DNA of 64,000 nt from OM43 beta proteobacterium (GTDB taxonomy: Bacteria > Pseudomonadota > Gammaproteobacteria > Burkholderiales > Methylophilaceae). The number at the start of each line of letters is the position of its first letter. Positions within the stretch are counted from its first letter, which is position 1. Shown here one piece after another: positions 12,214-59,529 of the stretch. The DNA is taken from the NCBI GenBank assembly GCA_042094875.1, contig JBELCI010000012.1, positions 30,104 to 94,103 on the forward strand, in the 5' to 3' direction. The translations under genes and the position numbers were made by a program. The notes beneath the pieces are model-generated. The model was not told where the DNA came from and made no database searches. It saw nothing but the letters and a program-made list of their open reading frames with translations.

Positions 12214-13377
12214 TTATAGTGCTGATAAGTCTTCTTTTATATCATTAATATCTTCCAAACCTACTGCAATTCTTATTAAATTATCACTAATACCCGATTC
12301 ATCTCGCTCCTTTTGCGAGATTCTAGAATGAGTTGTTGTTGCTGGGTGAGTTATAGTAGACCTTGTATCACCTAAATTTGCAGTAATTGACATCAATTTT
12401 GTTGAATTAATTATATTCCAAGCATTTTCTCTATTTCCTTTTACCTTAAATGACACTATACCTCCTCCAGAAGATTGTTGCCTCATTGCTAAATCGTATT
12501 GAGGATGTGAAGGTAGTCCGGGGTAATAAACTTGCATCACGTCTTGTTTTTTTTCTAACCATTTCGCCAATTCAGATGCTTTGGAAGCATGTGCATCCAT
12601 TCTAATTTTCAAAGTTTCTAATGCCTTAAAGAAAATCCATGCATTAAAGGGACTCATGGTAGTGCCTGCTGATCTTAAAAAACTTGCAACATCTTTCATA
12701 TGTTTATTTTTTCCAAGCACAGCTCCGCCTAAACATCTTCCCTGGCCATCTAGATATTTAGTTGCAGAATGAATTATTATATCCGCACCAAATTGAATTG
12801 GTAGCTGATGAGCCGGAGTGCAAAAACAATTATCAACAACTAATAAGCTGTTTGATTTATGAGCTAAATCAGCTAAAGCTGAAATATCACAAATTTCTGT
12901 CAATGGATTTGATGGTGTTTCAACAAAAAATAGCTTAGTATTTTTTTGGGTAGCATTTTCCCATTGAGTTATATCTGTTAACGAAACATAAGTAACTTTT
13001 AATCCCCAATTAATGAGAATATTTTCGAATAACTTAATTGTAGTTCCAAAAATACTTTTTGATACAACAATATGATCTCCAGTATTGCAAAGACTCATAA
13101 TACAGGCGAGTATGGCTGACATTCCAGTTGAAGTTGCCACACATTGCTCTGCTTGTTCTAGTTCAGCTAATCGATCTTCAAACATTTTTACTGATGGATT
13201 AGTAAAGCGAGAATAGACATTACCATCTTCTTTATAAGAAAACCTTGCAGCTGCCTGTTCTGCGTTTTTAAAAACAAAACTTGAGGTTAAATATAAGGCC
13301 TCAGAATGTTCACCTTGATCAGATCTGATTGATCCCGATCTTATAGAATTAGTTTCTAATTTTTTATTTTTTTTCAT
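12214..13377 (-). CDS. metZ: O-succinylhomoserine sulfhydrylase (Cys/Met-metabolism PLP enzyme)
   Basis: 387 aa. Near-collinear with recalled Pseudomonas MetZ (GNVYSRFTNP, VDNCFCTPA, HSATKYLDGQGR). purF-metZ adjacency is conserved in beta/gamma-proteobacteria. Confidence 0.88.
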   Translation of the reverse strand: MKKNKKLETNSIRSGSIRSDQGEHSEALYLTSSFVFKNAEQAAARFSYKEDGNVYSRFTNPSVKMFEDRLAELEQAEQCVATSTGMSAILACIMSLCNTGDHIVVSKSIFGTTIKLFENILINWGLKVTYVSLTDITQWENATQKNTKLFFVETPSNPLTEICDISALADLAHKSNSLLVVDNCFCTPAHQLPIQFGADIIIHSATKYLDGQGRCLGGAVLGKNKHMKDVASFLRSAGTTMSPFNAWIFFKALETLKIRMDAHASKASELAKWLEKKQDVMQVYYPGLPSHPQYDLAMRQQSSGGGIVSFKVKGNRENAWNIINSTKLMSITANLGDTRSTITHPATTTHSRISQKERDESGISDNLIRIAVGLEDINDIKEDLSAL

Positions 13378-13387
13378 TATATCTTTA

Positions 13388-13443
13388 TCCTATTTAGCTA
13401 CTTTAACAAATGTCTAGGTGTAGCAAGTTGTTATAAATCACCT
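13388..13443 (-). promoter_or_regulatory. candidate cis-regulatory RNA pseudoknot, copy B, abutting the metZ SD
   Basis: Minus strand: AGGUG-[AUUUAUAACAACUUGCUA]-CACCU, a 16-nt linker, then UAGCUAAA complementary to the loop 3' end (UUGCUA), followed directly by AGGA and the ATG at 13377. Confidence 0.45.
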
Positions 13444-13507
13444 TTTTTTATTATTACCTATGATGCTAACGTTTATGGATTCATAAAACACTTTTTAATT
13501 GTTGAAA

Positions 13508-13545
13508 TAAAAAAACCCGTTAAGCAACATTTTGCTAAAACGGGT
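13508..13545 (-). terminator. intrinsic terminator (attenuator of the metZ leader and/or purF terminator)
   Basis: Minus strand: ACCCGUUUUAGC-aaaauguu-GCUUAACGGGU followed by a U7 run. Confidence 0.7.
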
Positions 13546-13554
13546 ATTAATCGG

Positions 13555-13602
13555 TTTAGCAGTTATTTTTTTTACGCCCTGCAAGCTGAATCAAAACGGC
13601 GT
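13555..13602 (-). promoter_or_regulatory. candidate cis-regulatory RNA pseudoknot, copy A, upstream of the terminator
   Basis: Minus strand: ACGCC-[GUUUUGAUUCAGCUUGCAG]-GGCGU, then AAAAAAAAUAA, then CUGCUAAA complementary to the loop 3' end (UUGCAG). Confidence 0.45.
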
Positions 13603-13610
13603 ATAAATGT

Positions 13611-13638
13611 ATTATCCTCTTAAAATTAAAAAATACAA
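13611..13638 (-). promoter_or_regulatory. candidate sigma70 promoter for the metZ leader
   Basis: Minus strand TTGTAT-N16-GATAAT. The predicted transcription start falls about 7-9 nt downstream, at the 5' edge of element A. Confidence 0.4.
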
Positions 13639-13648
13639 GTAAGGTGAA

Positions 13649-15193
13649 TTAAGCTCGTTCTTCCTCCTCTTCATTCTCAGCAAGTGTAAAGCTGAAATCT
13701 AATTGTGATGTTGCTTTTGATAGATCTTTATTTTTAATGCCATCCGATCTTTTAGCTTCAAGACTATTTAAATAATTTTCATCAATCCCTCCAGTCACAT
13801 AGATACCATCAAAACAAGAACAATCAAAAAGTTTTAAATTATTATTCTCCTCAGTAATATTTTTTTTAAGCTCATCAAGATCCTGATAGATCAAACCATC
13901 AGCTCCAACTTCTTCACATATATCTTTATCATCTTTATTAAAAGCCAACAACTCGTTTCTTGAGGGCATGTCAATACCATAAACATTTGGATACTTAACC
14001 GGCGGAGCAGCTGATGCTAAGTATACATTTTTAGCTCCTGCGTCTCTCGCCATTTGAACAATTTCTTTTGCAGTAGTTCCTCTTACAATTGAGTCATCAA
14101 TTAACAGAACATTTTTACCTTTAAATTCTACTTTGATAGGATTTAATTTTTGACGAACAGATTTTTTTCTTAATGCTTGACCTGGCATTATAAAAGTTCG
14201 ACCAATATATCTATTCTTGATAAATCCCTCTCGAAAATCAGCATCTAACAAAAGAGATACTTCAAGAGCGCTTGGACGACTTGTATCTGGAATAGGAATC
14301 ACAACATCAATAGAAATATTGCTCCACTCTTTTTTTATTTTTTTAGCAAGTGATTTTCCCATATTCAATCTAGTTTGATAAACAGAAACTCCATCAATCA
14401 TTGAATCAGGCCGTGCTAAATAAACATATTCAAAAATACATGGTGATTGTTTAATTTTTGTTGTGCATTTTTTTGAATAAAAATTACCATCCATGTCGAT
14501 AAAAATAGCTTCTCCTGGATCAACATCTCTCAAAAGTTTAAATCCCAATACATCAAGCGCTACACTCTCAGATGCTACAATATATTCTGGTCCATCTGTT
14601 GTCTCTTTAATACCAATGACTAGTGGTCTTATTCCATTCGGGTCTCTAAAAGCTAGTAATCCAAAATTATTAATCATTGTAACTACAGCAAAAGCTCCTT
14701 CACACCTTTCATAAACTGACACTACAGCTTCGAAAATTATATCGGATGTCAAAACATTTTTTTGTGTTGCTTTTCCAATTGAATCAGCTAAAACATTCAG
14801 TAAAACTTCGGAATCAGAATTAGTATTAATATGTCTAAGATCTTCTTTAAACATATCATCTTTAAGACTATCTGAATTTGTAAGATTGCCATTATGACCA
14901 AGAACAATGCCATAAGGTGAATTTACATAAAATGGTTGGGCTTCTGCAGCTGAAGACGAGCCGGCTGTAGGATATCTAACATGGCCAATACCTATATTTC
15001 CAGTTAAATTACGCATATGTCTTGTATGAAATACATCTTTTACAAGACCATTATTTTTGTGCATCTTTATTCGGCCTGCGTTACATGTAGCAATCCCTGC
15101 TGCATCTTGTCCTCTATGTTGTAACACTAATAAACCATCATAGAGCATTTGATTTACTGGGCTATTAGCAACTATACCAATTATTCCGCACAT
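13649..15193 (-). CDS. purF: amidophosphoribosyltransferase
   Basis: MCGIIGIV N-terminal nucleophile Cys, GNLTN and PRTase motif VLLIDDSIVRGTT. Confidence 0.97.
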   Translation of the reverse strand: MCGIIGIVANSPVNQMLYDGLLVLQHRGQDAAGIATCNAGRIKMHKNNGLVKDVFHTRHMRNLTGNIGIGHVRYPTAGSSSAAEAQPFYVNSPYGIVLGHNGNLTNSDSLKDDMFKEDLRHINTNSDSEVLLNVLADSIGKATQKNVLTSDIIFEAVVSVYERCEGAFAVVTMINNFGLLAFRDPNGIRPLVIGIKETTDGPEYIVASESVALDVLGFKLLRDVDPGEAIFIDMDGNFYSKKCTTKIKQSPCIFEYVYLARPDSMIDGVSVYQTRLNMGKSLAKKIKKEWSNISIDVVIPIPDTSRPSALEVSLLLDADFREGFIKNRYIGRTFIMPGQALRKKSVRQKLNPIKVEFKGKNVLLIDDSIVRGTTAKEIVQMARDAGAKNVYLASAAPPVKYPNVYGIDMPSRNELLAFNKDDKDICEEVGADGLIYQDLDELKKNITEENNNLKLFDCSCFDGIYVTGGIDENYLNSLEAKRSDGIKNKDLSKATSQLDFSFTLAENEEEEERA

Positions 15194-57239: not shown

Positions 57240-59529
57240 CTTTATTATTGGCAATAATTTCTCGATTTCCATTACTTTGCATTGGAGATACTAATCCAGC
57301 TTTTTCCATATCTTCAATAATTCTAGCTGCACGATTATAGCCAATTCTTAAATTTCTTTGAACGTATGAGATTGAGGCTTTTTTGGATTTAAGCACAATT
57401 TCAACAGCTTCATCATAAAGGGGATCTTTTTCCCCAGACGGACTAGACTCACCTAAAATATTATCAACGCCCTCATTAGGATTAAGTATCTCTTCTATAT
57501 ATTCAGGCTCACCTTTCGATTTAAGAAAATTAACTACTTTATGAACCTCTTGATCAGAAACAAAAGCCCCGTGTATTCGGTCTGGATAGCCTGTTCCAGG
57601 CGGCATATATAACATATCGCCTTTTCCTAATAGTGTTTCTGCCCCCATCTGATCAAGAATTGTTCTTGAATCTATTTTACTTGATACTTGAAATCCAATA
57701 CGAACTGGGATATTTGCTTTAATTAATCCAGTAATAACGTCAACAGATGGTCTTTGAGTTGCCAAAACTAAATGTATTCCAGATGCTCTTGCTTTTTGAG
57801 CCAGTCTTGCAATTAATGCCTCAATTTTTTTACCCATTGTCATCATTAAATCTGCTAATTCATCAATAACAATTACAATTAATGGTAACTCTTCTAAAAC
57901 TTCTGGATTATCAGGATCTAATGAAAATGGATTTGTTAAAGGAGTTCCTTTTTCACTAGATTCTTTAATTTTCTGATTAAATCCAGCTAGATTTCTAACG
58001 CCAAATTCAGACATTAATTTATACCTTCTTTCCATTTCTGAAACACACCAATTTAAAGCGTTACTTGCCTGTCTCATATCAGTCACTACAGGCGATAATA
58101 AATGTGGAATTCCCTCATAAACTGATAGCTCAAGCATTTTAGGATCGATTAAAATCATTTTAACTTTATCAGAAGTTGCTTTATAAAGAAGACTTAGAAC
58201 AAGCGCATTAATAGCGACAGATTTTCCTGAACCAGTTGTCCCAGCAATTAAAATATGTGGCATTCTAGAAATATCTGCAATTTCTGGTTTACCGGCAATA
58301 TCTTTTCCTAATGCAACTGATAATAAAGCTGATGTATCAGCAAAAGTTTTTGAACTAACAATTTCAGAAAGGTAAACAATCTGACGATCTGGATTTGGAA
58401 TCTCCAAGCCCATACAAGTTTTTCCAGGAATAGTTTCTACAACTCTGACGCTACTTACCGATAATGCTCTAGCTAAATCTTTTGCTAAATTTATCACTTG
58501 ACTTCCTTTTACACCTGCTGCGGGCTCAAATTCATATCGAGTGATCACCGGACCAGGTTGTGCTGATATAACCTTAGCCTCAATTCCAAAATCCAATAAT
58601 TTTTTTTCTATCAATCTAGAAATAAATTCAATAGTTTCTGGTGATTGAACTGAAGCTTCTTTTTTTGGCTGATCTAGGAGATGCAATGGAGGCAAGATTG
58701 AATCAGAATCACCAAATAGACTAGTTTGTTTTTCTTTCTTAACCCTAACACTTTCTTTATCTGGCAACTTGATATCTAAAATTTTTACAGGAGAGCGATT
58801 TTCAAGCTTTTTTCTTTCTGAGTCAACAAAAGAAGATCTTTCTTGCTCAAACTTTCTCCCTTCTCTTCGATCTTGCCAATTATCATATTTGTTAATAATG
58901 CTTGTACATAAATTACATATGAAGTTACCAATACTTTCTGAGATTGTTATCCACGACCAACCAGTAAATAAACTAAACCCAATAGCAAATGAAATTACTA
59001 AAAAAACTAATGTTCCGATATATCCCATTGCTTGAGCTAAAAACTGATAAATAATATTACCTATAATTCCTCCTTGTTCAGAAGGTAGTAAAACTGCAAA
59101 ATCAATCATATAACCAGCTTCAAATGTTGATGACGATAAAAGCAAAAGGAAAAAACCTAAATAATGAATAATTAACAAATGTTTTATTTGATAATTTTCA
59201 TTCTCAATTCTTGGGTAAATTAAAAAAATACTATAAATACTTAAAAAAACTAGCCACCAAGCTGATAAACCAAAAATATTTAAAAAGAAATCAGAGAAGT
59301 AAGCGCCAGTGATTCCAGCTAAATTATTTATATTCTCTCCAACATCAATACTATGAGAAAAAGAAGGATCACTACCTGAATAACTTACTAAAGCGAGAGT
59401 TATATATAAACCTATAAATAATAGAGTAAACCAAGAAGCTTCTCTAATGACCCTACTTGCTAAATCTTTAGTATTTTTCTTAGATGCAGCTAAAATTTTA
59501 TTATTTTTTGATTTTTTTCTTGAAAACAA
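57232..59529 (-). CDS. ftsK: DNA translocase FtsK
   Basis: 765 aa with N-terminal TM helices, Walker [10 protein letters not shown], a motor domain and a C-terminal gamma winged helix ([18 protein letters not shown]). It appears to start with TTG; there is no in-frame ATG near the 5' end. Confidence 0.96.

Follow-up and report, generated by a model that had tools for sequence, protein, structure and literature searches.

We analysed the 271-nucleotide (nt) spacer between purF and metZ in a 64,000-nt stretch of contig JBELCI010000012.1 from an OM43 beta proteobacterium; this whole stretch is called the window below, and the elements described in the spacer are all read on its minus strand (−). 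The upstream gene purF (amidophosphoribosyltransferase; 13649..15193, −) was identified by TIGR01134 with 515.9 bits and ends with a stop codon at 13651-13649. The presumed target of regulation, metZ, encodes O-succinylhomoserine sulfhydrylase (12214..13377, −; above cut-off for NCBIfam NF006003 with 657 bits and for TIGR01325 with 558 bits), starts with an ATG at 13377-13375 and is followed downstream by gyrA. From purF to metZ, the leader contains a putative promoter, an aptamer of the SAM-II type (element A), an intrinsic terminator, a 65-nt AT-rich spacer (13444..13508, −) and a second, SAM-V-like aptamer placed over the ribosome-binding site (element B), SAM being S-adenosylmethionine. 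The sequence and length of the spacer between both switches are not conserved in a comparison of orthologous leaders. An original prediction made from the sequence alone had proposed two such pseudoknots, one with a terminator and one over the Shine-Dalgarno (SD) sequence, and each feature that it listed is present base for base at its place on the minus strand.

Element A (13551..13603, −) can be drawn as an H-type pseudoknot, and its assignment draws on a covariance-model match, a sub-threshold Rfam match and orthologs. Its P1 helix joins UACGCC (13603-13598) to GGCGUA (13578-13573) by 6 base pairs (bp) around an ACGCC/GGCGU core, in agreement with the at least 6 bp of SAM-II. The enclosed loop of 19 nt contains the U-rich third strand GUUUUGA (13597-13591) and ends in CUUGCAG, of which UUGCAG (13584-13579) is P2's descending strand. 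An A-rich L3 (13572-13563) leads to the ascending P2 strand CUGCUAAA (13562-13555) with its bulged U at 13558, and CCGA (13554-13551) is used for a partial P2a. Element A possesses the core of SAM-II aptamers, namely a U-rich L1, UUGC paired with GC-U-AA around a bulged U, and a 3' GCUAAA.

To place element A within the family, orthologous leaders were gathered by exact-protein look-ups, and 80 further loci (58-87% identity) came from a metagenome scan with a MetZ alignment. Scanning genome contigs with MetZ alone returned distant homologs only (28-38% identity, L001-L006), which were uninformative for leaders. A covariance model (R1) was then made from an alignment (A3) of 46 distinct canonical betaproteobacterial metZ aptamers, none of them of the OM43 type. 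Searched against the 64-kb window, R1 gave a single match below an expectation value (E) of 0.1, at 13605-13546 (−), with 41.7 bits, an E of 1.8e-9 and coverage of model positions 1-62 of 62; its next-best match had an E of 0.13. No Rfam model found a match at its gathering threshold (GA) in the whole window. Because R1 matched over its full length despite the weak Rfam scores given below, we read element A as an A/U-drifted ortholog of a known riboswitch, the SAM-II element found in front of metZ throughout Betaproteobacteria.

One conserved unit of aptamer and terminator is present in about 50 of the 80 metZ leaders from the metagenome scan. Its 5' part reads GCGCC-GAUUUGA-(optional inserted hairpin)-CUCAGCUUGC-G-GGCGC, and its 3' part consists of AUAAUAAAU, aCAGCUAAAGCGAG and a terminator with the 5' arm CCCGUUUUAGC. 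Among the 46 canonical leaders, P1 is 94.9% paired, with one position occurring as CG in 29, UG in 10 and UA in 7 sequences with zero mismatches; the P2 core UUGC/GC-U-AA and the third-strand and GCUAAA columns are invariant; and the canonical P2a, CUC-A-GC with GCGAG, is paired in 86.5% of cells. This unit corresponds to the 'metXZ' element, a pseudoknot with a terminator reported in front of metX for most Betaproteobacteria and in front of metZ for three Methylophilales (Leyn 2014, PMC4239095) and later reassigned to canonical SAM-II riboswitches (McCown 2017, PMC5473149). Only 1 of 11 canonical betaproteobacterial metZ leaders reached the cut-off of RF00521 (L065, 36.6 versus 36 bits), indicating that the curated model is insensitive for the betaproteobacterial branch. 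In the L031-L094 leaders this SAM-II riboswitch mostly scores below the cut-off, leaving a whole branch of the family with a gap in annotation. In about half of the betaproteobacterial SAM-II aptamers, L1 carries an insertion of 20-38 nt between GAUUUGAG and CUCAGCUUGC that resembles an extra hairpin (such as UGGCC...GGCCU; A3 columns 17-47, for example L034:365-395 and L046:498-535), and the OM43 copies are without it.

Element A shares with the metXZ SAM-II riboswitches the order promoter, aptamer, terminator, metZ, as well as a 6-bp P1, the absence of P3, and the blocks GCGCC-GAUUUGA...CAGCUUGC-GGCGC, A-rich L3, GCUAAA and terminator arm CCCGUUUUAGC. It differs from them by A/U drift, with ACGCC/GGCGU replacing GCGCC/GGCGC and GUUUUGA replacing GAUUUGA, and by a P2a cut from 5 pairs to 3. 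One additional nucleotide also lies between P2 and P1 of element A and allows P2 to gain two pairs (AG/CU) absent from the canonical set.

Upstream of element A, a putative sigma-70 promoter (13611..13638, −) was read from the sequence as a −35 box TTGTAT (13638-13633), a 16-nt spacer and a −10 box GATAAT (13616-13611), with 10 nt separating the purF stop codon from the −35 box. A simple promoter and terminator scanner called neither a promoter nor a terminator here; TTGTAT agrees with the −35 consensus at 3 of 6 positions, and the terminator stem is interrupted. Both features are nevertheless supported by their conservation in orthologous sequences. In 55 of 58 distinct metZ leaders a TTGAC/TTGTA box begins 34-41 nt upstream of P1, and the remaining three carry TTGTT or TTGAT at that place. 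Such a fixed distance supports a transcription start just upstream of element A, in line with the promoter that had been predicted, and argues against the downstream hairpin being merely the terminator of purF.

The terminator (13509..13545, −) starts nine nt past the aptamer tail as the hairpin ACCCGUUUUAGC...GCUUAACGGGU followed by U7. It has an interrupted 12-bp stem, ACCCGUU..AGCAA / UUGCU.AACGGGU, with an RNAfold energy of −14.1 kcal/mol. Within its 5' arm, UUUAGCA (13539-13533) is complementary to the tail UGCUAAA of element A (13561-13555), and the two form a candidate antiterminator. RNAfold of the full leader gave P1 of element A together with the terminator, and for a nascent RNA without the 3' arm of the terminator the minimum-energy fold was P1 plus the antiterminator UGCUAAA.CG / CG.UUUAGCA (−7.5 kcal/mol). 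The whole-leader minimum free energy fold was no more stable than that of shuffled sequences (z = 0.06), a measure that is uninformative for pseudoknots. Most betaproteobacterial leaders keep CCCGUUUUAGC/GGC in the terminator 5' arm, and nearly all orthologous terminators contain UUUAGC, complementary to GCUAAA, or UUUGGC, which matches it by way of a G-U pair. Folding and the conservation of UUUAGC support the antiterminator that had been proposed, and in the modelled pairings the tail of element A mimics the 3' arm of the terminator. The transcriptional platform of SAM-II riboswitches, a terminator with U7 competing with the aptamer tail, is likewise predicted for element A and conserved in its orthologs.

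Element B (13388..13443, −) was delineated by alignment to RF01826, by 14 orthologs and by its architecture. From 5' to 3', AGGUG is followed by a loop of 18 nt with CUUGCUA at its end, then by CACCU, a linker and UAGCUAAA-U-AGGA. SAM-V differs from SAM-II by a P1 of 4 bp rather than at least 6, a P2 of 6 bp rather than 4, the presence of P3 and an SD at its 3' end (Huang & Lilley 2018 and supplement), with P3 present in 'the majority' of SAM-V (Huang & Lilley 2018 supplement). In element B, P1 has the 4 bp of SAM-V, between AGGU (13443-13440) and ACCU (13419-13416), and is directly followed by the third strand G-AUUUAU (13439-13433), which supplies the equivalent of U8-U10. The descending strand UUGCUAC (13426-13420) and the ascending strand GUAGC-U-AA (13401-13394) make up a P2 of 7 bp including one inserted C-G pair, in which the 6-bp P2, the bulged U47 (13396) and A48-A50 (A50 at 13393) of SAM-V are all found. 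Between P1 and the ascending P2 strand lie a P3 hairpin, GAC-AUUU-GUU (13414-13405), and AAA (13404-13402), matching P3 and A40-A42. The SD AGGA (13391-13388) starts two nt past A50, and the ATG is 10 nt beyond it. Where SAM-V has A18, element B carries the C of CUUGC, as does the SAM-II consensus, and A is found in four orthologs.

Element B lines up well with the crystallised metY SAM-V RNA (AGGC-GCAUUUG-AAC-UGUA-UUGUAC-GCCU-UGCAUAAAGCA-AAA-GUAC-U-AAA-AAAGG). It is like SAM-V (RF01826; metY and bhmT of Candidatus Pelagibacter ubique; PDB 6FZ0) in P1, the UUU strand, UUG...C-U-AAA, P3 with AAA, an SD two nt past A50 and predicted translational control. It is unlike SAM-V in its 7-bp P2, the C for A18 and a score of 25.5 bits against a cut-off of 41, and also in its host, a betaproteobacterial OM43-type methylotroph, and its gene, metZ; SAM-V has been reported before metY, bhmT, mmuM and metH, mainly in SAR11 and marine metagenomes (Meyer 2009). 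On its predicted architecture and its binding core, we place element B in the SAM-II/V superfamily as a member of the SAM-V type, and not among the threshold-passing members of RF01826. The compensatory changes noted between both elements in the original prediction are real, but they separate two different known subtypes rather than copies of one element. Among the Rfam classes that it named, SAM-II matched element A and SAM-V matched element B, in both cases below the curated cut-off; SAM/SAH (S-adenosylhomocysteine), SAM-VI and preQ1-II gave no match in the region at an E of up to 10 and were rejected.

Conservation of element B was assessed with 14 distinct, closely related versions. Pairs were recounted in register by a script, as the MAFFT alignment (A2) shifts the 5' strand of P1 by one nt in three sequences. 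Columns for the third-strand UUU(A), UUGCU, ACC, AAA, AGC and AAA are invariant or nearly so, and they coincide with the triplex-forming and SAM-contacting positions of SAM-II and SAM-V. Pairing was found in 90.6% of cells, compared with 18-50% when partners were displaced by one to three columns. Covariation scored 0.141 versus 0.095, and this score and the number of doubly changed cells exceeded all but 2 of 500 shuffles. Four P1 pairs are kept in 14/14 versions, the first pair being AU in 9 and GC in 5; five core P2 pairs are likewise invariant in 14/14, and the outer ones vary by some mismatches and by one swap from A-U to U-A (L101). P3 is kept with G-C/G-U/A-U and C-G/U-A changes in the 12 orthologs whose leaders carry both elements and is missing in two versions from leaders with element B only. 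Of the two P2a pairs, the inner one (C with the first G of the SD) is present in 14/14 and the outer one in 10/14. The pseudoknot pattern was expected to persist and covary in orthologous leaders; it is conserved there, with covariation in element B being modest. A covariance model of element B (R2) found nothing significant elsewhere in the window or in 80 other loci, and element B is on this evidence confined to an OM43-related clade.

Cumulatively, these results make it very probable that the metZ leader consists of two SAM OFF-switches in series, following a 'bi-mechanism' design in which SAM binding, the direction of switching and SD occlusion are inferred. Transcription would start a few nt upstream of element A. 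With SAM bound to element A, the GCUAAA tail would be held in a P2 triple helix with the U-rich L1, so that the terminator could form and transcription would stop; in the absence of SAM, the tail UGCUAAA would pair with UUUAGCA of the terminator 5' arm, and RNA polymerase would read on. Transcripts that escape would carry element B, in which a SAM-stabilised triplex and a short P2a would hold the GG of the SD AGGA and block translation of metZ, a mode of SD hiding that was derived from the SAM-V crystal structure (Huang & Lilley 2018). SAM-II/SAM-V tandems, first counted as 120 and now as 149, always have SAM-II first with a terminator and SAM-V at the ribosome-binding site (Sherlock 2022, PMC9481103). 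The metZ leader is like them in order, in both platforms and in having a sulfur or methionine gene downstream, and unlike them in belonging to Methylophilaceae/OM43 instead of SAR11 and in the identity of the gene, metZ. The resemblance to Pelagibacter tandems in the original prediction is supported in the form of divergent members of these classes, on the basis of the R1 match of element A and of the SAM-V architecture and SAM-II/V ligand core of element B; its alternative of a new class is not supported.

Several observations weigh against two SAM switches in series. RF00521 scored element A at 18.2 bits (GA 36) with an E of 0.069 in a 341-nt search, and RF01726 at 16.4 bits; the same 341-nt Rfam scan by E-value found SAM-II for element A and missed SAM-V in element B. 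In a 91-nt search, RF01826 aligned with element B end to end at an E of 0.011, and its 25.5 bits are below the GA of 41. Even in narrow searches the SAM-V model did not match the element B orthologs of L101 and L018, which limits the support from this model to the version in the window, and nine OM43-type loci had no Rfam match at GA. P2a is reduced in both elements: as read from the sequence, UUCAGC with CCGAU keeps 3 of 5 canonical pairs in element A, and element B of the window has the inner C-G pair only, made by C13429 of the 5' strand A13430-C13429. The counts of pairs and of pair types among the 14 versions of element B do not exceed those of shuffles, and its covariation support is real but modest since these sequences are close relatives. 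At −14.1 kcal/mol, the terminator is far more stable than the antiterminator (−7.5 kcal/mol), so that read-through would need a kinetic choice during transcription. Also, when full-length RNA of the Pelagibacter bhmT tandem was studied in vitro, its SAM-II domain was unresponsive to SAM (Feng 2024, PMC11508383). Finally, element B reads GCCAAA for GCUAAA in L023:609-680, L025:609-680 and L112:18-90, so that C stands in place of U47 (SAM-V numbering), the pairing partner of the SAM adenine. L023 and L025 combine this change with a weakened SD (AAGAAA) and an intact element A, and L112 has a degenerate P3 on a contig too short to show element A. In these variants the second switch could be decaying, the helix could have re-registered into a constitutive one, or the ligand pocket could be altered.

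Other explanations were also considered. Element A could be the only working switch, with element B a decaying or non-regulatory duplicate, or a constitutive structure at the ribosome-binding site, that does not sense SAM. The score of element B well below the SAM-V cut-off, the two orthologs without a SAM-V match and the weak P2a in the window would fit this explanation, as would the C in L023, L025 and L112 (two of them with the weakened SD), as isocytidine in place of that U abolishes binding in a real SAM-V riboswitch (Huang & Lilley 2018). By contrast, 11 of the 14 versions keep every ligand-contact base, compensatory changes occur in P1, P2 and P3, and the invariant columns coincide with the SAM-II/V binding core and not with the SD alone. 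The sister clade with element B as its only aptamer, beside the SD, moreover argues that element B can carry regulation by itself. We consider a non-sensing element B improbable, while giving it more weight than either of the explanations that follow.

Alternatively, the hairpin and U-run at 13545-13509 could simply be the terminator of purF and the aptamer likeness of element A incidental. There is no other purF terminator before metZ, and with the purF stop only 10 nt from the −35 box, read-through from purF would end at this hairpin. Yet about 50 betaproteobacterial metZ leaders keep the unit of aptamer and terminator, with P1 at a fixed 34-41 nt from a −35 box, the same element precedes metX in other genomes (Leyn 2014, PMC4239095), the terminator 5' arm keeps its complementarity to the aptamer tail, and R1 matched with an E of 1.8e-9. 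A role of the hairpin in ending purF transcripts, even if real, leaves the aptamer unexplained, and we regard this explanation as very unlikely. Equally hard to credit is a change of ligand in one or both elements (to SAH, methionine or another adenosyl compound), which would turn the double SAM switch into a two-input gate. Both elements are divergent enough to miss curated thresholds, in element B a C replaces A18 of SAM-V, which partners A50, and variant riboswitches with altered specificity are known for SAM-I. Against such a change, the positions reported to contact SAM or to frame its sulfonium (the bulged U, two U:A.U triples and A50) are all present in both elements, C at position 18 is the consensus state of SAM-II, and the context of a homocysteine-synthesis gene is typical of SAM control.

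Orthologous leaders have three layouts. Leaders with element A only occur in other Betaproteobacteria and in L106/L117 (MetZ 72-73% identical); leaders with both elements occur in the window and in all relatives with 79-98% MetZ identity; and leaders with element B only, having an A-rich L3 without P3, occur in L018-20 and L026-28 (MetZ 74% identical). In the clade of the last layout (L018:1133-1204, L027:237-306), the spacer is 161 nt long and contains neither SAM-II nor a terminator, and element B gave no SAM-V match and only 8.7 bits with SAM_alpha (RF00521). A rough neighbour-joining tree of MetZ placed the lineages with element B only and with both elements as sister groups, and those with element A only outside. 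The simplest reading of these sequences is that element A is ancestral, element B was gained in the common ancestor of the sister groups, and element A was then lost in one of them. Sequence comparison clearly points to vertical inheritance of the SAM-II half from the betaproteobacterial metZ leader, indicating assembly of the tandem within the OM43 lineage. We tentatively propose, as a possibility with somewhat less than an even chance, that OM43 built its own tandem from this inherited SAM-II and an element B that arose either by duplication and remodelling of SAM-II, in convergence with SAR11, or by transfer of a SAR11-like element, with one clade losing element A. If so, the three layouts would form a rare preserved series of riboswitch turnover and would suggest that 'SAM-V' is not a single lineage but a translational form of SAM-II that has recurred, favoured in the AT-rich streamlined genomes of marine bacteria.

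Among marine bacteria, OM43 methylotrophs are abundant and streamlined and possess very few regulators, and their methionine synthesis is probably under double RNA control by SAM. The design itself is already known from SAR11, and earlier work on Methylophilales in effect covers element A. Novelty is limited to the SAM-V-type partner, and with it the tandem, in a betaproteobacterial OM43-type lineage (an earlier listing of OM43 examples being possible), together with metZ as the gene under a tandem, the position of both halves below curated thresholds and the series of three layouts. This would extend the bi-mechanism SAM-II/SAM-V design from SAR11, which are Alphaproteobacteria, to a second and unrelated streamlined lineage, and the series offers natural material on the gain and loss of tandem riboswitches. 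Curated models miss both switches because of the drift toward A/U; a riboswitch scan of an OM43 isolate reported a cobalamin riboswitch only (PMC9004378). In practical terms, the Rfam seed alignments of SAM-II and SAM-V should gain betaproteobacterial and OM43 sequences.

The conserved motif pair also permits a simple estimate of chance occurrence. The expected number of CTTGC-N5-35-GCTAAA matches is 1.34 per 64 kb for both strands together and about 0.003 per 271 nt for one strand, and by our own arithmetic the chance of two copies in one leader is about 4e-6. A third match in the window, at 59456-59494 (+), was matched by neither R1, the SAM-II model, nor R2, the element B model, and was rejected as a chance occurrence. 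Other low-scoring Rfam matches (snoRNAs, miRNAs, rli60 and a tmRNA fragment) were also dismissed as chance.

Some minor observations concern the flanking genes. A protein identical to this MetZ is encoded in the Methylophilaceae metagenome-assembled genome GCA_045568515.1 and in marine metagenomes, and close homologs are labelled Methylophilaceae or Nitrosomonadales. After its stop codon (13639-13651, up to the −35 box) purF has no terminator of its own, and its read-through would meet first the SAM-II aptamer and then the terminator hairpin. The latter may also end such transcripts, and this could couple the 3' end of purF mRNA to SAM levels. In L021:457-666 (also L014:55-276; MetZ 87% identical), an open reading frame (ORF) of 69-73 amino acids is inserted between element B and metZ and uses the SD of element B. 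The small ORF of L021 matched no Pfam family, and L013, a contig with the same MetZ protein as L021, is without the insertion. In two metagenome assemblies with identical MetZ (L009:1-1230, L011:3-716), purF is split into two ORFs of 251 and 237 amino acids instead of one of 514, probably by a frameshift or an assembly error.

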